From Synechococcus sp. (lineage in GTDB: Bacteria > Cyanobacteriota > Cyanobacteriia > Thermostichales > PCC-7336), in contig JBFRWN010000001.1 in NCBI GenBank assembly GCA_051439605.1, positions 1 through 24,483 on the forward strand: a stretch of DNA of 24,483 nt, read 5' to 3'. Positions within the stretch are counted from its first letter, which is position 1, and each line of letters starts with the position of its first letter. Both the position numbers and the translations under genes were made by a program. Shown here piece after piece: positions 1,645-24,483 of the stretch. The notes under the pieces were generated by a model that saw only the letters and a list, made by a program, of their open reading frames with translations, did not search any database and was not told where the DNA came from.

Positions 1645-2565
1645 CTATTGGAGCGCAATATATACAGGGTAAGCGCAAGGAACTTTGAAGGACAGTGTAA
1701 TTTATAGGCACGATCTCGAACGAATCAGGTAGGGAGCACTTAGTCTTGATGCGTTTATTCTCAGCACTAAATGAGAATAAAATGACCTTATTGATTCTGC
1801 GCTTCCCCTGGCAATATCTCTAGAGAATTTTCGGTTGCTTATTGTGTGATACGAATACAGGTGGCACTGAATACTCTCATGGTTACTAACATTACATTGC
1901 AAATAAAGCAACTTTATCATTTGTAAGGCTTGATGGGTATCTTCACAGAGCTATTGCACCTTCTACTCTCCTTGGGTTGAGTATTTGTAACAGCCTCAAT
2001 GTGGGTTTTCACTGTTTGAGTGGTATATATTTTCCCCTCTTCTTTCGTTTGTCGAGATCGACTAAGATGATGCCAGGTTTAGATTGAGATGGTTATACAA
2101 AACTTCTAGCTTTGAATGTTTATTTTTGTTTCTCATATTTTGTCATCAATGCTTAGATTTATCAGCATTTCTTTTGGATTTTTCATGCAATAGTGTCTAT
2201 TTGATGCTATCTGAAAAGTTTTGGAATGCAGCTCCCAATGCATTCTTGACGGTTTAAAAATTCATTCCGATGTGGAACCAGCCCAAGATGCAATTAAGCT
2301 TGTGGCAATGCGGTTCCAGACTAGAGATAACAGACCAGCAATCTATTGCTCCATCCGATAGGGAGATTACGTTGGCATTCTAAAGCAGTTCTTGTTTGAG
2401 GATTGCATTGAGCAAATAACACTTAATGGTGACCATCTCATCAACTTTCGCTGTGACAGCACAGCTTTTGTTGTTAATCTCCCGATGTTTCCTGTCGAGC
2501 TCCTTCTAAGACATACATAACCCATATGTTTATGTTTGGTGGGAAAACTTTGTCTCATTGAGCCG

Positions 2566-4725
2566 ATGCAATATCCAGTCGTACGACAGCAAAGTAAAGA
2601 AGACTGTGGAGCTGCCTGTTTGGCGACAGTAGCGAAGTTTTACGGGCGGACGTTCTCCCTCACTCGTACCCGCGAAGCAGTGGGAACGGGCCATAAAGGT
2701 ACAACCCTACTTGGTTTGAGGCGGGGGGCGGAATCATTAGGATTCAATGCCCGTCACGTCAAAGCTAGCCCCGAATTGGTTGATCGAATCGAAGAAGCTC
2801 CTTTGCCGGCCATGCTCCATTGGAAAGGTCGTCATTGGGTAGTGTTGTACGGAATGAAACGACAAAAATACATCGTAGCGGACCCCGCTCACGGTCTGAT
2901 ATATCTCTCTCGTCAGCAGTTCATGGATGGTTGGAGAAACTACGCCATGTTGCTGCTAGTTCCCGACGAAGAGCGATTTTACCAACAGCCCAATGACACT
3001 GTTGGAACGATAGGTCGTTTCTTAAGGAGGGTAAGGCCATATCGCAACATTCTTTTGGAGGCGATCGCCATCAACGTGGCGATTGGGCTGCTGGCTTTAG
3101 CTATGCCTGTGGCTATGCAGCTCCTAACTGACGATGTCCTGGTTCGTCGTGACAAGCAACTGCTCTTCACAGTAGCCACCGTCATTATTGGTATGAACGT
3201 GTTTCGTACGGCGATTGGTTTAGCTCAAGCGCACCTAATCGGACAGTTCGGTCAGCGTTTGCAATTGGGGTTAACCCTCGACTACGGCTACAAACTGCTG
3301 CGACTCCCCCTATCCTATTTTGATGCCCGCCGCAGTGGAGAAGTGGTCAGTCGCTTAGCCGATGTTCGACTCGTCAACCAATTTTTAGCTCAGTTGGTCC
3401 TCGGTTTACCCAGTCAACTGTTCATTGCCCTCATTTCTGTTGGTTTAATGTTCCTCTACAGCTGGCAACTGACATTGGCTTCTATGCTGGCCTTTGGATT
3501 GGTGGCCTGTCTCAACCTGCTTTTTTTACCGGTATTGAGACAAAAGAGTCGTCAACTGATTGTCGAGAGTTCCGAGAACCAAGGATTTCTCGTGGAAACC
3601 TTTCGGGGGGCGATGGTACTCAAAACCACCTCTGCCACTCCTCAAGCTTGGGACGAATACCAGCTCAACTTTGGTCGATTGGCCAACATTCAGTGGATAA
3701 TAACGAAGATCGGTCTTTACAGCGCTACACTAACCCAATTTGTTTCCAGCTTGACCACCATTGGTTTGCTGTGGCTCGGTAGCTATTTCGTAATTGGGGG
3801 ACAACTCAGCATCGGTCAGCTGATTGCCTTCAATGGGATGAGTAGCAACTTCCTTGGGTTTCTTGCCCTTGCAGTGAGCTTGATTGACGAATTTGTCACT
3901 GCCCAAGTAGCCGTTCAACGGTTAAGCGAAGTGCTCGAGGCCAATCCCGAAAACTCCAATGATGACCCTGGTGCCCGAGTCCGGATTGCCGATGATGGAA
4001 ACATAACCTGCTCAAACCTGAACTTTCACCATGCTGGTCGAGTTGACCTTCTGAAGGACTTCAATCTCGTTATTCCCGGAGGAAAGGTGACGGCTCTAGT
4101 GGGACAGTCGGGATGCGGTAAAAGTACGTTGGCTAAGCTATTTGCTGGGTTGTACGAACTGCAGTCCGGTAATATCCGCTTCGGTCTGTTCAACCTAACC
4201 GACCTCGAACTGAGCAGTCTCCGCAAACAGGTGGTGCTCGTCCCTCAAGAGCCCCATTTTTGGAGTCGCAGTATCCTGGATAATTTCAGATTTGCTTACC
4301 CCGGCATCTCTTTAGAAAAGGTGGTAAGAATGTGTCAGATTACCATGGCAGATAATTTTATTAGCGAATTGCCGGATAAATACCAGACGGTATTAGGAGA
4401 GTTCGGTGCCAACTTATCAGGGGGACAAAAGCAACGGTTGGCAATTGCGAGAGCTCTGATTGCTAATCCACCGATTCTCATCTTGGACGAAGCTACTGGT
4501 GCTCTTGACCCTATCTCTGAGTCTCGACTGTTAGACCGTTTGCTCGAGTTTCGATATGGGAAAACAACCATTCTCATCAGTCATCGCCCCAGTGTAGTGC
4601 AGAGAGCTAATTACATCCTGTGGTTAGACAAAGGAGAACTCAAACTCAGTGGCACCCCTGAAGAGTTGGGGAGTCAACCGGGTGACCATCTTGCCTTTTT
4701 ACCTGGAGGCAAGGATGGAACATAA
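2566..4725 (+). CDS. Peptidase C39-containing ABC transporter (PCAT; SunT/HlyB/HetC-like)
   Basis: C39 motifs QQSKEDCGAAC, HWVV and ADPA; multiple TM helices; Walker A GQSGCGKST, signature LSGGQKQR, Walker B ILILDE and H-loop ISHR. Start placed at ATG 2566 (MQYPVV) rather than the track's 2536. Confidence 0.95.
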   Translation: MQYPVVRQQSKEDCGAACLATVAKFYGRTFSLTRTREAVGTGHKGTTLLGLRRGAESLGFNARHVKASPELVDRIEEAPLPAMLHWKGRHWVVLYGMKRQKYIVADPAHGLIYLSRQQFMDGWRNYAMLLLVPDEERFYQQPNDTVGTIGRFLRRVRPYRNILLEAIAINVAIGLLALAMPVAMQLLTDDVLVRRDKQLLFTVATVIIGMNVFRTAIGLAQAHLIGQFGQRLQLGLTLDYGYKLLRLPLSYFDARRSGEVVSRLADVRLVNQFLAQLVLGLPSQLFIALISVGLMFLYSWQLTLASMLAFGLVACLNLLFLPVLRQKSRQLIVESSENQGFLVETFRGAMVLKTTSATPQAWDEYQLNFGRLANIQWIITKIGLYSATLTQFVSSLTTIGLLWLGSYFVIGGQLSIGQLIAFNGMSSNFLGFLALAVSLIDEFVTAQVAVQRLSEVLEANPENSNDDPGARVRIADDGNITCSNLNFHHAGRVDLLKDFNLVIPGGKVTALVGQSGCGKSTLAKLFAGLYELQSGNIRFGLFNLTDLELSSLRKQVVLVPQEPHFWSRSILDNFRFAYPGISLEKVVRMCQITMADNFISELPDKYQTVLGEFGANLSGGQKQRLAIARALIANPPILILDEATGALDPISESRLLDRLLEFRYGKTTILISHRPSVVQRANYILWLDKGELKLSGTPEELGSQPGDHLAFLPGGKDGT

Positions 4726-6091
4726 CGAACTGGAACGGATGGCCGTCGACAGCTCCAAGGAGCTCCTAGACCCTACAGACGAACCCGTTTTTTTGCCACC
4801 AGCTGCTCCAGGGGATTTCCTTCCTCCCATCGGTAATTGGCCTACAGTGGGGGGCATTGTCATGTTGTTGGGATTTGTGGGAGCAGTCGGATTGTCTGCG
4901 GTATTGCCCTACACGGTCACAGTGCAGGCCTCTGCAAGGATTCGGCCAGCAGGTGATTTGCGAATTGTACAGGCAACAGCAGAAGGCACGATAGAACTGA
5001 TTGCGATTGAGGAAAATCAGCGAGTAGAGAAAGGGAATGTCATTGTTGCTATTGATGACTCTCAACTGCTCACCAGACAGCGACAATTAGAGACCGGTTT
5101 GGAGCGAGGTCGAGAACAACTGGATAGACTCAACGGTCAACTGGAAACGATTAACAGACAGATTGCTGCTCAAACAAAGGCTTCCGAACGGGATGCTGCA
5201 GCTTATATGGCGGAACTGGAACTAGAGCAAAGTGACTATCGGGAACGTCAGCTAGTGACCCAAGCAGATGTGGATGCAGTAGACGCGGAAGTTGCTTTAG
5301 CAAGAGAGGAATATCAGCGTTACCAACAATTAGCAGACTCGGGAGGGATATCCCAGTTGCAAGTATTGGAAAGGGAGTCTGCTCTCAATGCTGCATTGGC
5401 AAGGTTGGAACGAGCTAAGGCATCTTTGAATCCCAGTGAAGCTCCCGTCAGTCGGGCTTTGGAACGGTTAGAGCAAATTCGATCTAGCAATGTTGCTGCA
5501 TTGGCTGCTCTAAATCGAGAGCGAGAGGCATTATTGCAAAAGCAGTTAGAGCTGGAAGAACAACTCCTTCAGGAAGAGGACGATCTGGCACAGGTGGAAG
5601 TAGACCTGCAAAACACGGTGGTAAGAGCTCCTGTTGCGGGCATTATTCAGCAGCTGAATTTACGGAATATCGAACAAGTTGTTGGACGAGGAGATGAAAT
5701 TGCCAAGATTGCTCCCATCGACACAGAGCTAGTCATTGAAGCCTATGTAGCATCACGCGATATCAATTTGGTGGAGGTAGGACAAACAGCACAGATGAGG
5801 GTGAGTAGCTGCCCTTATCCAGATTTTGGAACATTGACGGGTACTGTGTTCGCGATTGCTCCAGATGTATCGGTATCGGAGTCTGGTTCAGGTCAGCAAG
5901 ATAACAAGCTGCCAACTACTTCGGACGGTTTCTACAAAGTACAAATCAACCCTTCAACACTGGAAATGACATTGAAAGGTCGGAATTGTCTGCTTCAGGC
6001 GGGAATGGAAGGAAGGCTAGATATCGAGACAGTGCGAGAATCGATTCTTTCCTTTCTCCTCAGAAAGGCGCGGCTTTTAAGCAATATCTGA
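4715..6091 (+). CDS. HlyD-family membrane fusion protein (type I secretion adaptor)
   Basis: N-terminal TM helix, lipoyl half-motifs (VQATAEGTI, VVRAPVAGII), long coiled coil, YPDFGTLTGTV and LQAGM. GGAGG at 4705-4709 precedes ATG 4715, which overlaps the PCAT 3' end by 11 nt. Confidence 0.93.
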   Translation: MEHNELERMAVDSSKELLDPTDEPVFLPPAAPGDFLPPIGNWPTVGGIVMLLGFVGAVGLSAVLPYTVTVQASARIRPAGDLRIVQATAEGTIELIAIEENQRVEKGNVIVAIDDSQLLTRQRQLETGLERGREQLDRLNGQLETINRQIAAQTKASERDAAAYMAELELEQSDYRERQLVTQADVDAVDAEVALAREEYQRYQQLADSGGISQLQVLERESALNAALARLERAKASLNPSEAPVSRALERLEQIRSSNVAALAALNREREALLQKQLELEEQLLQEEDDLAQVEVDLQNTVVRAPVAGIIQQLNLRNIEQVVGRGDEIAKIAPIDTELVIEAYVASRDINLVEVGQTAQMRVSSCPYPDFGTLTGTVFAIAPDVSVSESGSGQQDNKLPTTSDGFYKVQINPSTLEMTLKGRNCLLQAGMEGRLDIETVRESILSFLLRKARLLSNI

Positions 6092-17357: not shown

Positions 17358-18216
17358 TCATTTTGAATATTCATATCGCAGTCGGGTGATTCGCCCCCGC
17401 CAGTAGGGTTTAGGCCCCTTGGGGAGGATCCATGCCACTTCGCATTCGAAAGGGATGCGCATGCCGTCCTGCAGCTAGTAGTGACTCAATCGGCATTCCC
17501 AAGGCGTTGGAACTACATCACCTGCAACGATGCGCCCGCGAGCCTCTGCACGGATTGATTCGATTGTTCCTGATTCATTGAAAACAAACAGCATTGAAAG
17601 GCTGTTTTCTCCATCAGTTAACGTTGCCTTGGCTGATGAGTCTTCATCCGCGTCCCAACGAACACCCTGGCTTGGTAACAGTGCAGTTGGATACCATGCT
17701 GCTTCGGCAAAGAAAACTCATGAGTTGACCTCGCGCCAAATCCAGGGTTTCCCGCAGATTGACCAGCAGTATCAGACCGAATAGGACCGCATCAAGACTA
17801 CCTTCGCATGCAATATAAGAATCATGCACGTAAACCGGGATGCTACGTGAAATCTTGATGCGGGCGTTCCAGTCGAATCCGGGGGGGTGGATGATGATGC
17901 GCTGGGTGGATGCGAACGACAGCCACTGTTCGCCAGTCTCGCTCAAGTTGATGGTGCCTTGATGTTCTATGCTGACGGCTGCGATAGCGGGCTGGTTTAC
18001 CTGCAAAACGGTACGGAAGTAACGCTGCACGGGGGTAGGCAAACCTTCTAATTCTTGGGGATTGTAAGTTTTTGGGGCGATCGGTAAGCGTGCCGCTTCC
18101 AGGTTTCTCCGCCGAATTCTTGCATCCGCTTCCCAACGGAACTTTCCGTAGAGGATCGCAGGGGCAATCAGGAAAGATAGGGCAATCGCTACCAGTACGA
18201 TGATTTTCAACCCCAT
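17358..18216 (-). pseudogene. Disrupted membrane-anchored DUF6544/DUF6920-like protein
   Basis: N-terminal part has LPTPVQRYFR. A 1-nt frameshift at the run 17713-17716 leads into FFAEAAWYPTALLPSQGVRW...; there is an in-frame TAG at 17475-17477; the frame then continues as LQDGMRIPFECEVAW...YWRGRITRLRYEYSK* to 17358. Family name is from memory. Confidence 0.8.
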
Positions 18217-18863
18217 ACTCGATCTCGCTGGCTATGGTCGCAATCAGCCCCACCGATTAGGGAGAACTTTGTTGTGATAATTGAGCTTAGCAAAATGCAC
18301 AAATGGCGCGTTGTAATGGGTTTTGGCTGTATTGCCTTGCTACCGCTTGCTTCCCACACTGGCCACATAGGCCTCATGCGGCATCGAGCCCTTTTGGTAT
18401 CACGGCTACGTTTGTTTTGTCAGTTCATCAGCGAGCAACCATAAGGCGAACAATTCTATACACATTTCAATTCATCCTTTTTCGATTCCCAATTGTTTAT
18501 CTACATAATTGGTCTAAACAAGTCTAATCAGGCAATATTTATGGTTGTTCTGCAAAGATTTTTGGAGACACGATCTGAAGTGTCTGCGACTGAAGTCAAA
18601 ACACTACGCACAGTGTAGTCAATCAAACTTTGTAACTGCACAACCTAAAATACTAATTCTCCAAGAGGGTAGCGCTACTAATTGAATTATTATCAATAAA
18701 TCCGGATTCAGTGTCTTAGGTGCTAGAACCAGTAGCATAGATAACCTACTACGCCCTAGAGACTATGCGCTTCAGATATTCCTTGAATCTAATCCTCATT
18801 CCCGAGAAGCTGAGCAGTCGAATCACAGATAAAATTATCTAAAGAAGAGGTACATTTTTAGGG

Positions 18864-19130: not shown

Positions 19131-21320
19131 ATGAGTTGCTTCAGTTGGCTGCATCTGACAGATCTGCATCAGGGAATGCAAGAACAGAACTGGCTTTGGC
19201 CAAGCGTAAAAGAAGTTTTTTTTAAGGATTTAGAGAGTCTGCATGAGAAATGTGGACCCTGGGATTTAGTCTTATTCACTGGCGATTTAACACAACGCGG
19301 TAGCAAAGAAGAATTTAATCGAATCGATGACATTCTAGAAGAACTATGGACACACTTAAAAAAGCTAGGTTCATCTCCGCAATTATTAGCTGTACCTGGC
19401 AATCATGACTTAGTTCGACCGAATTTTAAGGATCCCTGTGTTCGCTTGCTGAAACAATGGCCAGAGTTGCATGATATACAGGAAGAATTTTGGGAAGAAG
19501 CTGACTCTCCTTATCGTCAAGTCGTTACTACAGCATTTAAAAACTATGCTGAATGGTGGGAAAAACAACCCTTTAGAGCCAGGAAACTAAACGAAGGTAT
19601 TCTTCCCGGAGATTTTTCATTCACTTTTGAAAAAGAACAAGCAAAGCTGGGTGTTTTAGGTTTGAATACCAGTTTCCTTCAACTGACTAGTGATGACTAT
19701 GAAGGTAAACTTGCTATCCATGCCCGTCAGTTTCATCAAGCCTGTAGTGGAAATGGTGTTGATTGGGCAAAACAACATCATGTTTGCCTTCTGCTTACAC
19801 ATCACCCCCCTTCCTGGTTGACTACCGAGTCAAAACAAGATCTTAGGGGTGAGATTGTTGCTCACGGACGCTTTGCGGCTCATTTATGCGGTCATATGCA
19901 TGATGTTACTTTTCAAGATATTTCTGAGGGTGGCACTGAAGCAAGGCGGGTCTGGCAAGGAAGATCGCTATTTGGCCTAGAGTATTTAGGTAGTAATAAA
20001 GATGTGCAGCGTCTGCATGGCTATACAGCCGGAAGAATTGAACTCAGCGATAAAGCAGGTCAACTAATATTTTGGCCTCGGCAAGCTCTTCTGCAAGGAG
20101 GACAGAGAAAAATAGCACCAGATTACACCTTAGATTTAACAGACGATCAGCATATTAAACCTAGAAGCATTGAACTTCTGCAGCCATATGATGTTTTGAA
20201 GAGATTGAAGGAAGAAAAAGATGCTCGAAAGAAGAAAGACTCAGAATCTTTGAAACCACGAACAAGCTGCTATCCAATGGATCCAGACTCTAGATGTTTA
20301 GAGGGACCTAGAGGAAGTGTACCTTTAAAATCTGTATTTTATATTGAACGACCTGAGATTGAATCACTTTGTTATCAAGAAATCACTAATAGGGCTGCTC
20401 TCATACACATAAGAACCCCACTTGATATGGGAAAAACAACATTGTTGATAAGAATTTTAGATTATGCAAAGCAGCAGAGTTATAAAACCATCCTAATTTC
20501 ATTGGAACGTTTTGAAGAGAATACCTGCGCAGATTTAAATCTGTTCTTGCGACGATTCTGCGCTTTAGTCAGTCGTTCTTTAGGAATTTCACCCAAGAAA
20601 ATTGATGACTATTGGGATGAAGACTATTTTGGTCCTAATGATAATTGCATGGATTTTTTTGAACAATGCATCCTACCCTCAGTTGAGGAACCTTTGGTCA
20701 TGGCTCTGGATGATGTAGATGTTATATTTCCATATCAACGGAATGCCAAAGAGTTCCTTAAACTGATTCGCGTCTGGCATGAGCAAGCAAAAACAAACAA
20801 CATTTGGTCAAAGCTGCGTCTTGTTCTTGCTTACTCCACAGAACTTTATATTGAGATGGACACCCACTCATCTCCTTTTAATGTAGGAATAGAAATTAAT
20901 TTGCCAGAATTTACCTCCGATCAAGTTTTAGAAATAGCTAGGCGCTGTGGGCTGGACTGGAACGATACACAGGTCGATCGCTTAATGTCCTTAGTAGGTG
21001 GACATCCCTATTTGATTCGAGTTGCTCTCCATCAGGTTGCCTACTACAACAAGAACCTCGATCTCATTTTGCAGTCTGCCCCGACTGAAGGAGGCATTTA
21101 TGGTAACCACCTGAGACGTCATTTACGAAACTTACAACAACATCCAGAGCTCCTATCAGCTATGAGCACTGTAGTTAATTCTGAACATCCTGTGTGTTTA
21201 GATGCTAAAGCCGAATTTAATTTACATGCTATGGGACTAGTGGATTTCGATGGAAATGAGGTAAGACCACGATCTGAACTATATCGTCGCTATTTCCGAA
21301 AGCGATTAAAAGAGAACTAG
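19131..21320 (+). CDS. Calcineurin-like metallophosphoesterase fused to an AAA_35 (STAND-like) NTPase domain
   Basis: MPE motifs LTDLH, TGDL, PGNHD, THHP and GHMH. C-terminal AAA_35 motifs GSVPLKSVFYIER, MGKTT, LDDVD, SPFNVG, GGHPYL and LYRRYF. Confidence 0.9.
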   Translation: MSCFSWLHLTDLHQGMQEQNWLWPSVKEVFFKDLESLHEKCGPWDLVLFTGDLTQRGSKEEFNRIDDILEELWTHLKKLGSSPQLLAVPGNHDLVRPNFKDPCVRLLKQWPELHDIQEEFWEEADSPYRQVVTTAFKNYAEWWEKQPFRARKLNEGILPGDFSFTFEKEQAKLGVLGLNTSFLQLTSDDYEGKLAIHARQFHQACSGNGVDWAKQHHVCLLLTHHPPSWLTTESKQDLRGEIVAHGRFAAHLCGHMHDVTFQDISEGGTEARRVWQGRSLFGLEYLGSNKDVQRLHGYTAGRIELSDKAGQLIFWPRQALLQGGQRKIAPDYTLDLTDDQHIKPRSIELLQPYDVLKRLKEEKDARKKKDSESLKPRTSCYPMDPDSRCLEGPRGSVPLKSVFYIERPEIESLCYQEITNRAALIHIRTPLDMGKTTLLIRILDYAKQQSYKTILISLERFEENTCADLNLFLRRFCALVSRSLGISPKKIDDYWDEDYFGPNDNCMDFFEQCILPSVEEPLVMALDDVDVIFPYQRNAKEFLKLIRVWHEQAKTNNIWSKLRLVLAYSTELYIEMDTHSSPFNVGIEINLPEFTSDQVLEIARRCGLDWNDTQVDRLMSLVGGHPYLIRVALHQVAYYNKNLDLILQSAPTEGGIYGNHLRRHLRNLQQHPELLSAMSTVVNSEHPVCLDAKAEFNLHAMGLVDFDGNEVRPRSELYRRYFRKRLKEN

Positions 21321-21401
21321 AAAAGCATGATAAGCACAGTCTCTCAATCCAAATTCTGTCTTGCTTGACAAAAAGATATTGTTCTTAGCTGGGTTATCGC
21401 T

Positions 21402-24400
21402 ATGAATAGTAAACCTATTCCTACCCCCAAGCCAAAGCCTATCAAATATCATGTTGGCGGCAGTCTGTTGGCTGACGATTCAACTTATGTTGAGCGACAG
21501 GCAGATCGGGAACTCTATAAGTTTCTCAAGTCAGGGCAGTATTGCTATATATTCAATTCCCGCCAGATGGGTAAGTCGAGTGTTCGCGTAAGAGTGATGC
21601 AGAGATTACAATCTGAAGGAGTTGCTTGTGCAGCCATTGACCTTAGCGGCATTGGTAGTAGCAAAGAGGTTACACCTAAAAAGTGGTATGCAGCAGTTAT
21701 TAGAAACTTGATTGGTAGTTTCAATTTAACTGACAAAATAAATCCCCGTTTCTGGTTACGCGAGCGAGATTCATTTACATTTACAGAGCTCCTGGGAGAA
21801 TTCATCGAGAAAGTTCTCTTAGCAGAAGTCTCTCAACAAATTATTATCTTTTTTGATGAAATCGATAGCATCCTCAGCCTAAGAGATTTTGCTCGTGATG
21901 ATTTCTTTGCTTTTATTCGATCTTGTTATAATGTTCGGACAGATAAACCAGACTATCGCCGTTTGGCATTTGTTCTGATTGGGGTTGCCAATCCTTCAGA
22001 CTTAATGCGGGACAAAGGTCGTACCCCGTTTAATATTGGTCAAGCGATCGATCTGACTGGTTTTACGTTAGATGAAATTCGAGAACCATTAGGACAGGGA
22101 TTGGGTGAAAAAACAAACAATCCAGAAGCAGTCCTCAAAGAAATTTTATATTGGACCGGTGGCCAACCATTCCTAACTCAAAAAATTTGCGATTCGATCG
22201 TGAAATCAGAGTCACTGATTCCGGAAGGTGCAGAGAAGGAATGGGTTAAACAGTTAGTGCAAGATCGGATTTTGTATAAGTGGGAATCCCAGGATTATCC
22301 CGAGCACTTAAGAACTATTCGCGATCGTATCTTAAAAGATAATCCTCGCATCGGACGAATGCTGGGTATCTACAAGCAAATCTTACAACAGGGGAAAATA
22401 GAGGCCATTGAAAGTCTTGCAGAAATAGATTTACGTCTATCTGGTTTGGTTGTTAAGCAAGGAAATAAAATTCGGCCTCGTAACCGTATTTATCAAATCA
22501 TTTTTGATTTGGAATGGGTGGAGGGGCAATTAGATAATTTACGCCCCTATGCAGATAAAATCAATAAATGGATAGCTTCAGAATTTCAGGACACTTCCTT
22601 TCTGTTGCGAGATGAGGAATTGCAGCAGGCAAATGAATGGGCTATGGGGAAGAGCTTGAGCGTTAAAGACTATCATTTCCTTAGTGCCAGTCGTGAGCTA
22701 GAAAAAAGAAAAGTTGAAGCTGCTCTGAAAATAGAACGAGAGGCGAAAGATGCAGAGCAAAAGGCGAAAGAGTCTGAAAGAGAAGCCAAAGAAAAGATGG
22801 AAGTTGCTAACAAATATTTGTTGGAAGCCCAATGTAAGTATAGGCAGAAAGTAAGACTAGGCATAATTGTTCTGATTTTCTTTGTTATTTTTTCAGGAAC
22901 CATTTTTATAACAGCAGTTAAAATTACTGTTGCTTTGATTGCAAAACAACGACGCAATTTAGAAGATATATTTCCACTGACAGAAGCAGTGCTTGATTTT
23001 GCAGAAGATGAGGAGAATGCTTTGGCTAAGCTCTCTAATATTATAGAGGCCAATCCTGATAATGCTGCTGTATGGATTGTGCGAGGTGAATTTTTATCGC
23101 GAAAAGGAGAGCTAGAAGAAGCGCTTAGTCATTTTGAGGAAGCTATTGAGCGAGACTCCGATAACTTCGTTGCTTACTTTGGGTACGGCAATGCTCTGTT
23201 TGATAATGAACAATTTGAGGATTCTATTCTAGCCTACGATCTGGCTATTAAATATAAAGATGATTACCATCAAGCCTGGATGAACCGGGGTTTGGCTTTC
23301 GATCGACTGGAACAACCTATTGAGGCAGTCGCATCTTATAATCAAGCGCTGAAAATAGATGAGGACAATAATACAACAATTGCTGATCTAAAGCGGATGC
23401 TTGATAAGTTGATCGAGACTTTTCTAAGAGGTAGTTCTGATCAGATCTCCACTCAGCATAGAAGTTTTGGCACATTTGGTGAAGCCCAGGATTATCGTGA
23501 AGCCAAGACTCCTAGTGTAAATATCTCTATTTCTAATATCTCTATTTCTAATTTAGATCGAGATGAGGTTGAAGTCATTAAAGAAAGTACTCGTTTACTG
23601 GGGCAACTTGCAGCGGATGTCCAAGAGGAAGGGATTGGAAATGCGTTTCACTACCAAGGGTTTTCTTTCCTCTTGGCAGGGGAATATTCAGAGGCCATAG
23701 AACGATTTGATCGTGCATTGGATATTCATCCTATGTACTCAGAAAGCTACATTTTACGTGGCATGGCTCATTTATCCAATGGGTTTCGGGAGGATGCATA
23801 CGCAGATTTTATCCATGCAGTTGAGGATGCATTTGCAGATTTCAACCATGCAGTTGAGCTGGAACCTACTCTGGATACTGCTATTGTCAGACGCGGTCAT
23901 ACCCATCGCTTGAGTGAGCGCTATGAAGAGGCCTTAGCCGACTTCAACCGGGCTATCGAATTGGATAGCAAGTATTCTGAGGCATTCGCCGAGCGGGGTG
24001 AGACTTATCGCTTAACGAGGCGCTATGAAGAGGCCTTAGCCGACTTCAACCGGGCTATCGAATTGGATAGCGAGAATGCTTGGGCAATCGTTAGCCGCGG
24101 CCAAGCTTACCAAGCCATGGAGCGCTACGATGAAGCGCTAGAGGACTTTACTCGTGCGCTCGAACTGAACCCCAACTTGGATTGGGTCATTGCCGAACGG
24201 GGTGAGACTTATCGCTTAACGGAGCGCTATGAAGAGGCCTTAGCTGACTTCAACCGGGCTATCGAATTGGATAGCGAGTATGCCTGGGCAATTGGTAGCC
24301 GCGGCCAAGCTTACCGAGCCATGGAGCGCTACGATGAAGCGCTAGAGGACTTTACTCGTGCGCTCGAACTGAACTCCAACTTGGATTGGGTCATTGCTGA

Positions 24401-24483
24401 GCGGGGTGAGACTTATCGCTTAATGGGGCGCTACGAAGAGGCCCTCGCAGACTATAACCGAGCCATTGAACTTAACCCTGATG
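21402..24483 (+). CDS. AAA_35 NTPase - coiled coil - TM helix - TPR repeat protein (>1027 aa; 3' end outside the window; absent from the ORF track)
   Basis: ATG 21402: MNSKP...YHVGGSL...YVERQAD, Walker [10 protein letters not shown], Walker B IFFDEID, TPFNIG and WTGGQPFLT. Hydrophobic segment [20 protein letters not shown] at ~22860-22920, then TPRs ([25 protein letters not shown]). The frame was spot-checked at several points and is consistent. Confidence 0.92.
23918..24483 (+). repeat. Near-identical TPR-coding tandem repeats (102-bp units, 204-bp higher-order period)
   Basis: ga(g/a)cggggtgagacttatcgcttaa at 23991, 24195 and 24399; cgctatgaagaggccttagccgacttcaaccgggctatcgaattggatagc recurs at 102- and 204-bp spacings. 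Confidence 0.92.

Follow-up and report, generated by a model that had tools for sequence, protein, structure and literature searches.

A metallophosphoesterase–AAA_35 gene and a predicted transmembrane AAA_35–TPR gene of Synechococcus sp.: a new combination within a widespread two-NTPase module

The gene pair and its domains

We analysed two co-oriented genes at the end of a 24,483-nt stretch of DNA of Synechococcus sp. (assembly GCA_051439605.1, contig JBFRWN010000001.1), which is an entire contig (C1) of a 4.9-Mb genome with a GC content of 51% and is referred to below as the window. Gene 1 (19131..21320, + strand; 729 aa) encodes a metallophosphoesterase (MPE) domain, a linker and an NTPase of the AAA_35 family. 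Gene 2 (21402..24483, + strand, open at the contig end) follows after a gap of 81 bp and encodes a second AAA_35 NTPase, a charged linker, a predicted transmembrane (TM) helix and a long array of TPRs. The limits of the genes come from open reading frame calls, Pfam and, for the end of gene 2, a contig-end match. Taken together, our results identify the pair as a new combination in a module that is widespread and has been half recognised by computation.

The calcineurin-like MPE domain (19140..20186, + strand; residues ~4-352), delimited with the use of Pfam, an AlphaFold2 model, Foldseek and motif columns, is a predicted SMPDL3A/Rv0805-like phosphodiesterase. Pfam Metallophos matches residues 7-257 (E 8e-13), and all five metal-binding motifs are present (D11/H13, D52, GNHD 90-93, H224 and GHxH 254-257); the metal ligands are invariant across 44 aligned homologues, in an alignment where the search pattern itself partly dictated the GNHD columns. 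A Foldseek search with the model (pLDDT 94) was led by YydB, SMPDL3A/B, acid sphingomyelinase and Rv0805; GpdQ was also among the neighbours, while Mre11 appeared at rank 49. YydB is an ABC-ATPase-coupled effector, and the domain carries an HHP motif, a feature of class III phosphodiesterases. By sequence, the best PDB matches are to Mre11/SbcD (E 7e-7) and are limited to the first 93 residues. On the basis of the model, the domain is more probably a nucleotide phosphodiesterase than a nuclease such as a DNase.

Sequence comparison places this MPE in a clade of conflict effectors related to the anti-phage protein DS-8. NCBIfam matches it to the DS-8 MPE (E 2e-21), near DS-8 and DS-9A, and it has the five metal motifs and the SMPDL3A-like predicted fold of DS-8-like conflict MPE effectors. 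The whole protein falls outside DS-8 itself (75.6 bits versus a cut-off of 790, over the MPE part only), and the Pfam scan found no NACHT domain. Fusion partners of the nearest MPE homologues (65-70%) are bDLD1, EAD8, TIR or SAVED, and several of these homologues adjoin iSTAND genes; other members of the clade are fused to, or lie beside, NACHT, NB-ARC, SIR2-TIR, caspase, EAD1, dynamin or kinase-FGE. PADLOC returned domain-level matches, one of them labelled 'Effector, Endonuclease'.

The NTPases represent two subtypes, which we call A and B: A stands at the C-terminus of its protein, after an output domain, and B at the N-terminus, followed by a tail. The type-A domain of gene 1 (20307..21302, + strand; residues 393-724; Pfam and alignment) scores 433 bits with Pfam AAA_35 (PF14516; gathering cut-off 27 bits), and the type-B domain of gene 2 scores 114 bits over residues 21-368, its full extent with a helical extension being residues ~15-440 (21444..22721, + strand; Pfam, alignment and model). 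The two are ~20% identical and homologous end to end (hhalign 99.9%). Gene 1 has a Walker A GKT (K435), a Walker B ending in DD instead of DE, and a GGHP motif; it sits on a long branch and has unusual P-loop residues (TPLD). Gene 2 has a Walker A RQMGKS, a Walker B DE (Glu153), a GGQP motif and R207, which is aligned with Ser580 of gene 1. Among 64 paired homologues, B retains the Walker B Glu in all 64 and Arg207 in 59 (neither column was fixed by the search pattern, as those of the B Walker A partly were). The A partners keep the Walker A Lys in 63 cases and the Walker B Glu in 40 (40/47 cyanobacterial and 0/17 myxobacterial, with Asp in gene 1), and have an Arg at the aligned finger site in 2. 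From its position, R207 of B is a candidate arginine finger.

The folds closest to the B model (pLDDT 92) are the archaeal ATPases SSO1545 (2fna) and PAB2304 (2qen), which we take to belong to the MNS clade, followed by Orc1/Cdc6, Avs3, Avs4 and CED-4, a ranking expected for an MNS-type STAND NTPase. The Walker A and B motifs, the GxP motif and the Cdc6/STAND-like fold (taken from the B model, and for A by homology) are likewise those of MNS-like STAND proteins.

Downstream of its NTPase, gene 2 encodes a charged, probably coiled-coil linker (22695..22847, + strand; residues ~432-482), recognised by eye from its E/K/A-rich sequence, and a single predicted TM helix (22863..22919, + strand; residues 488-506) that follows the basic stretch KYRQKVR. 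The mean Kyte-Doolittle hydropathy of this helix is 2.83 (1.02 in the best window of gene 1), and a hydrophobic helix at this position is common to most B homologues. An N-in/C-out topology is suggested by the lack of a signal peptide, the leading cytoplasmic NTPase and the basic residues before the helix. Moreover, a TM helix directly follows B in 9/9 homologues with peptidoglycan-binding or amidase tails and in 0/9 with GAF/PAS/HisK/REC tails (classes hand-picked from 120 listed matches), and this dependence on tail class supports both a real helix and an extracytoplasmic tail. The first TPR block (22989..23381, + strand; residues ~530-660; Pfam/NCBIfam) is predicted to be extracytoplasmic; the second extends from residue ~745 to the contig end (23634..24483, + strand). 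Pfam TPR_1 has 8 passing stretches in gene 2.

The second block ends in a 204-nt, two-TPR tandem repeat (23983-24443, + strand; 93% matches), whose GC content rises to 0.54; the rest of the locus is at ~0.41 (range 0.40-0.42) and the genome at 0.51. Contigs from 3/3 sequencing runs of one study (one of which may be the source sample) contain a joint leading from 24483 to 24280, i.e. 204 nt back, and in the best run the depth at this joint was 55.6 versus 20.8. This indicates that the repeat was collapsed in the assembly, which does not fix the number of TPRs, and the real array is probably longer. The window contains no stop codon for gene 2. Contig C57 begins with the final 60 nt of C1, which occur nowhere else in the genome, and the frame extends there for 53 further codons, up to a stop at C57:221. 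The end of gene 2 most likely lies there, ahead of a SLATT_2 gene, although the join is weaker than usual, since contig-end overlaps in this assembly are mostly 127 nt. One run contig carries the repeat variant of the window into C57 and another spans C57:98-1666.

The layout proposed in a first-pass annotation, i.e. two co-oriented AAA_35 genes, an N-terminal MPE with five metal motifs, a charged coiled coil, one TM helix and a TPR array, was recovered, the coiled coil as a probable one. That annotation had overlooked the open end of gene 2, the collapsed repeat and the division of the NTPases into two subtypes.

Distribution and diversity of the A/B module

We searched 201 genomes of the phylum, scoring at most 10 (A) or 8 (B) candidates per genome; related genomes in these counts are not independent. 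A (AAA_35 at A-level scores) was found in 70 genomes and B in 68, all of them within the 70. Of the B-centred loci (the best 80 of 613, from 9/64 parts scanned), 62 have a co-oriented A gene upstream, within 300 bp in 35 of these; in 2/80 A is on the other strand and 4/80 end too early. Single-chain fusions occur in both orders, B-A (L023, L161) and A-B (P0203). Over 48 cyanobacterial pairs, A and B distances are correlated (rho 0.63, permuted maximum 0.33), a result that linkage alone could yield. B is also present on 45 plasmids. The analysed pair is one copy of a common cyanobacterial and myxobacterial module, and no study of the A/B pair turned up in the literature searched. In some proteins (P0122-P0136, P0138-P0144), a single chain carries B-type domains or parts of them in tandem, two to five in number. 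An Atlas search with window positions 21402-22958 placed Sll1247 N-/C-terminal helical domains with AAA_35 in its third-ranked cluster, which points to a Synechocystis member.

The outputs on A and the sensors on B are swapped freely. Among the 53 A N-termini long enough to scan, we identified TIR (13), CHAT alone (14), kinase (6) and HTH (5), with no Pfam family in 15 and no MPE in any of the 53. The B tails among the matches listed include WD40, TPR, peptidoglycan-binding, amidase, CHAT, CHASE2, PBP, GAF and HisK. Two loci (L196, G131:C114; L197, G005:C25) consist of one A, whose N-terminal domain is short, and a downstream row of four B-TM genes; in tandem B arrays the NTPases are 79-90% identical and the tails 41-52% identical in 11/12 comparisons. 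Similar coordinate clusters are also visible in three other genomes (G109, G199, G008). In 8/80 B loci (L127, L129, L130, L132, L139, L145, L146, L157) a gene of ~207 aa for HSDR_N, a restriction-nuclease fold, separates A from B, in the same orientation as both, and 5 of these loci share one CHAT-A clade. An HNH gene (L180) and a PIN gene (L147) occupy comparable positions.

History and neighbourhood of this copy

The same genome carries a paralogous pair on contig C44 (L002:7003-12644, - strand), composed of a Ser/Thr kinase-A gene (60% to the gene 1 NTPase) and a B-TM-WD40 gene (69% to the N-terminal part of gene 2), as well as a lone A gene on C81; no cyclase-A was found in it. A midpoint-rooted FastTree phylogeny of 95 A domains, in which myxobacterial and unlabelled sequences had been thinned, recovers gene 1 as sister to the kinase-A clade that includes the C44 copy (support 0.94) and places it far from myxobacterial MPE-A proteins. 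This placement suggests that output and sensor were both probably swapped on a duplicated core, and that MPE was probably recruited to A more than once. MPE-A proteins are encoded in 26/79 MPE loci, nearly all of Myxococcota, and B lies directly downstream in 24 of the 26, often with a 4-nt overlap, the other two loci stopping at contig ends. A TM helix is present in 23 of these 24 B genes; WD40 was found in 5/7 MPE-A-linked B genes scanned and TPR in 0/7. To judge from these sequences, MPE-A with B-TM arose independently of the Synechococcus locus and was kept across Myxococcota. The closest full-length relative of gene 2 is P0140 (B-TM-TPR; 62% over residues 6-507), and the exact combination of MPE-A with B-TM-TPR was seen only at this locus among the loci examined. 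In 40 relatives, 3 of them congeners with 85-100% completeness, no copy of the MPE was found, and the locus DNA matched these genomes weakly and within the B NTPase only.

Two Nannocystis records (L063, L069) have an MPE-A gene split across frames, the gene being intact in near relatives. Beyond the C44 pair lie a gene for a tRNA_edit-cyclodipeptide synthase fusion and a convergent FHA-PrsW gene, with an ATP synthase cluster upstream.

The SLATT_2 gene (L001:863-1489 on C57, + strand; 208 aa, E 8.5e-22) is the sole tblastn match in the genome and starts ~640 bp past the inferred end of gene 2. Its homologues directly precede a clade MPE in 2/79 MPE loci (L072/L073, of related Acidobacteria and hence one event), where they are followed by MPE-caspase and TPR genes. 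The link between SLATT_2 and the gene pair is suggestive only. A twice-repeated stretch (L001:330-770 and 1639-1881), which many contigs and congeners also contain with ~70-85% matches, flanks the gene, as does a short transposase-like remnant, presumably ISAs1-like. SLATT genes are reported together with calcineurin effectors in the GAP1-N1 systems, in the relevant part of Kaur et al. 2020 (PMC7159879).

Just upstream of the gene pair, overlapping frames at window positions 17644-18253 (- strand) suggest a frameshifted DUF6920 gene, which matches model positions 1-115 of 222 only. Farther away (2536-6091, + strand) are genes for a Peptidase-C39 ABC exporter and an HlyD adaptor, of the bacteriocin/type I secretion type.

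Proposed function and comparison with known systems

We consider it probable, by a modest measure, that the gene pair constitutes a split NLR-like immune switch. TPRs outside the cytoplasm (in the periplasm) would recognise a cue of foreign origin or of damage, and the signal would be relayed via the TM helix and the coiled coil to B. B, which probably acts as the principal ATPase switch and supplies the arginine finger, would then oligomerise and draw in A, presumably by direct binding. Clustering may then activate the MPE, which would cleave a cyclic or linear nucleotide and so stop growth or infection, with the downstream SLATT_2 protein possibly in a back-up role. A role in defence is suggested by the TIR and CHAT outputs, the HSDR_N inserts, the plasmid-borne B genes and the diversifying receptor arrays of the module. 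In this copy, the patchy occurrence of the MPE among strains, the low GC content, the conflict contexts of the MPE clade and the nearby SLATT_2 gene form a signature of conflict.

The first-pass annotation had regarded the genes as a receptor and an effector, a division that agrees with the A-before-B order, the fusions and the domain layout. The further points it raised, namely that homologues of the two genes co-occur, that accessory domains vary or are swapped among them, that the NTPases are of STAND kinship and that calcineurin-like MPEs belong to conflict systems, are borne out by the loci and models described above. As for the output, it had left a choice between a nuclease and a cyclic-nucleotide phosphodiesterase; the fold search and the kinship with DS-8 point to a nucleotide phosphodiesterase, and the low rank of Mre11 speaks against a nuclease. 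The architecture, for which it knew of no characterised counterpart, is new as an exact combination, whereas the pair as such is a common module that partly resembles ordinary signalling.

Several observations weigh against an immune switch. The family is present in most of the larger-genome cyanobacteria sampled, resembling a signalling network more than a rare defence cassette, and signalling parts are common in it (HTH, LuxR/sigma-r4 and adenylate cyclase on A; GAF, PAS, HisK, CHASE2 and CobW on B). Pairing is not strictly one to one, because many A genes have no adjacent B: B lies within 1.5 kb downstream in 5/30 A-centred cyanobacterial loci, with one additional fusion, and conversely 12/80 B loci lack an A gene over 3 kb or more of upstream sequence. 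The A and B genes found in three congeners are not neighbours in the same orientation. Since cyanobacterial A domains mostly keep the Walker B Glu, A is not generally a dead subunit. The TM helix is followed, too, by 4 K/R in 15 residues, the PADLOC and NCBIfam matches are confined to the MPE or TPR parts, and SLATT_2 occurs in 0 of the other 24 MPE-A/B loci and in 0/80 B loci, lying here across repeated DNA.

The same wiring might serve ordinary envelope or environmental signalling, the MPE acting as a regulated phosphodiesterase that lowers cyclic AMP or another second messenger without killing. We regard this as unlikely, if a serious competitor: it would fit the adenylate cyclase, kinase and HTH domains of other A proteins, the GAF/PAS/CHASE2/PBP domains of other B proteins, and the HHP motif of the MPE with Rv0805 and GpdQ among its fold neighbours. 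Hat of Synechocystis is also a putative B-type protein. This WD-repeat protein is linked to the control of inorganic-carbon transport in the relevant passage of PMC4057619. On the other hand, the remaining contexts of the MPE clade are mostly conflict systems, the MPE gene is strain-patchy and of low GC content, and the genome yielded no cyclase-A.

It is also conceivable, though quite improbable, that the NTPase pair releases a DNA or RNA nuclease of the Mre11/SbcD type, as the GNHD motif, the partial PDB matches, the PADLOC label and the top fold match YydB could imply. Over the whole domain, however, SMPDL3A, acid sphingomyelinase and Rv0805 rank far ahead of Mre11, and DS-8, the nearest relative with experimental data, is taken to be a nucleotide phosphodiesterase in the section of PMC13092281 that treats it. 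The least probable explanation, to which we give very little credence, is that the genes are linked by inheritance only, MPE-A being a recent non-functional shuffle and A and B acting separately or with other paralogues. Stand-alone A genes are indeed common, the gene 1 NTPase has diverged in its branch length and P-loop, and IS-like (insertion sequence-like) remnants are repeated in the nearby DNA; against this, neither frame is disrupted within the window and no catalytic residue is missing, MPE-A with B-TM apparently arose independently and persisted in Myxococcota, and fusions exist in both orders.

Bacterial NLR-like sensors that have been tested, as described in the passages cited here, detect phage proteins in the cytoplasm, whereas a STAND pair split in this way, with its TM receptor, would sense outside. 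More tentatively, and with a greater chance of being wrong than right, A/B pairs may form an unrecognised modular class of transmembrane signalling systems, the NTPase counterpart of two-component systems, in which diversifying B receptors would monitor the periplasm and activate exchangeable A outputs. Within this class, the locus would be a bacterial immune receptor of surface type that responds to a threat at the envelope by destroying nucleotides with its SMPDL3A-like enzyme, with a SLATT pore as back-up. The module is found in about a third of the sampled genomes of the phylum, plus myxobacteria, and the pair is a convenient test case (two genes, clear catalytic residues, an assayable product) that could help to identify the substrate of DS-8-like phosphodiesterases.

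Leipe and colleagues reportedly dealt in 2004 with the MNS-clade STAND NTPases and the Npun2340/2341 family. The A/B module probably corresponds to this family, given that the B fold is nearest to SSO1545/PAB2304 and that the family name implies two adjacent genes; both are cyanobacterial. The family is named in PMC8195603 among NTPases with TIR, calcineurin, caspase, trypsin or kinase N-terminal effectors, but the passage concerned presents single-chain NTPase-FGS proteins and describes no TM receptor/effector pair. The nSTAND2 system is portrayed in part of the same paper (Kaur et al. 2021, PMC8195603) as a mobile operon of two STAND genes, predicted to form a hetero-oligomer, with variable effectors on the less active partner. 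Our pair resembles it in having two STAND-type genes and in the hetero-oligomeric action proposed. Pfam revealed no nSTAND family at E<=0.001, in a profile set that presumably includes nSTAND2 (nSTAND1 and nSTAND6 were seen there). Instead of an eroded subunit and a finger in both partners, A keeps Walker A and usually Walker B, and the finger Arg is largely confined to B; B additionally has a TM helix and a repeat sensor, and the nSTAND2 effectors (GT4/HEPN) differ from those of the A/B module.

With Avs proteins, which are characterised as single-chain cytoplasmic sensors in the pertinent part of PMC13581612, the pair shares a STAND-type core, a TPR sensor and an N-terminal enzymatic effector, and Avs3/Avs4 are among its fold neighbours; here, effector and sensor are on two genes and a TM helix precedes the TPRs, unlike in one-chain cytoplasmic Avs/NLR-like proteins. 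Transmembrane sensing by STAND proteins has been proposed before, as a periplasm-facing sensor was predicted on a NACHT protein (PMC10907252, passage on that protein). In the PCTM ParA system, outlined in the relevant portion of bioRxiv 10.64898/2026.10.19.760177, an NTPase with a C-terminal TM helix and an outside domain is coupled to an upstream effector gene (SLATT, caspase). This is a thematic parallel to our pair, although the PCTM NTPase is single, of ParA/SIMIBI type and unrelated to AAA_35. According to the section of PMC13092281 devoted to it, DS-8 combines MPE and NACHT domains, has an SMPDL3A-like fold and depends on its catalytic residues for phage defence; its substrate is given there as unknown. 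Gene 1, like DS-8 and DS-9A, has a homologous MPE with an SMPDL3A-like predicted fold and intact catalytic residues, placed N-terminally to a STAND-type NTPase. In contrast to DS-8, a single NACHT protein of ~994 aa, the system described here has AAA_35 NTPases split over two genes and a sensor that is predicted to be anchored in the membrane.

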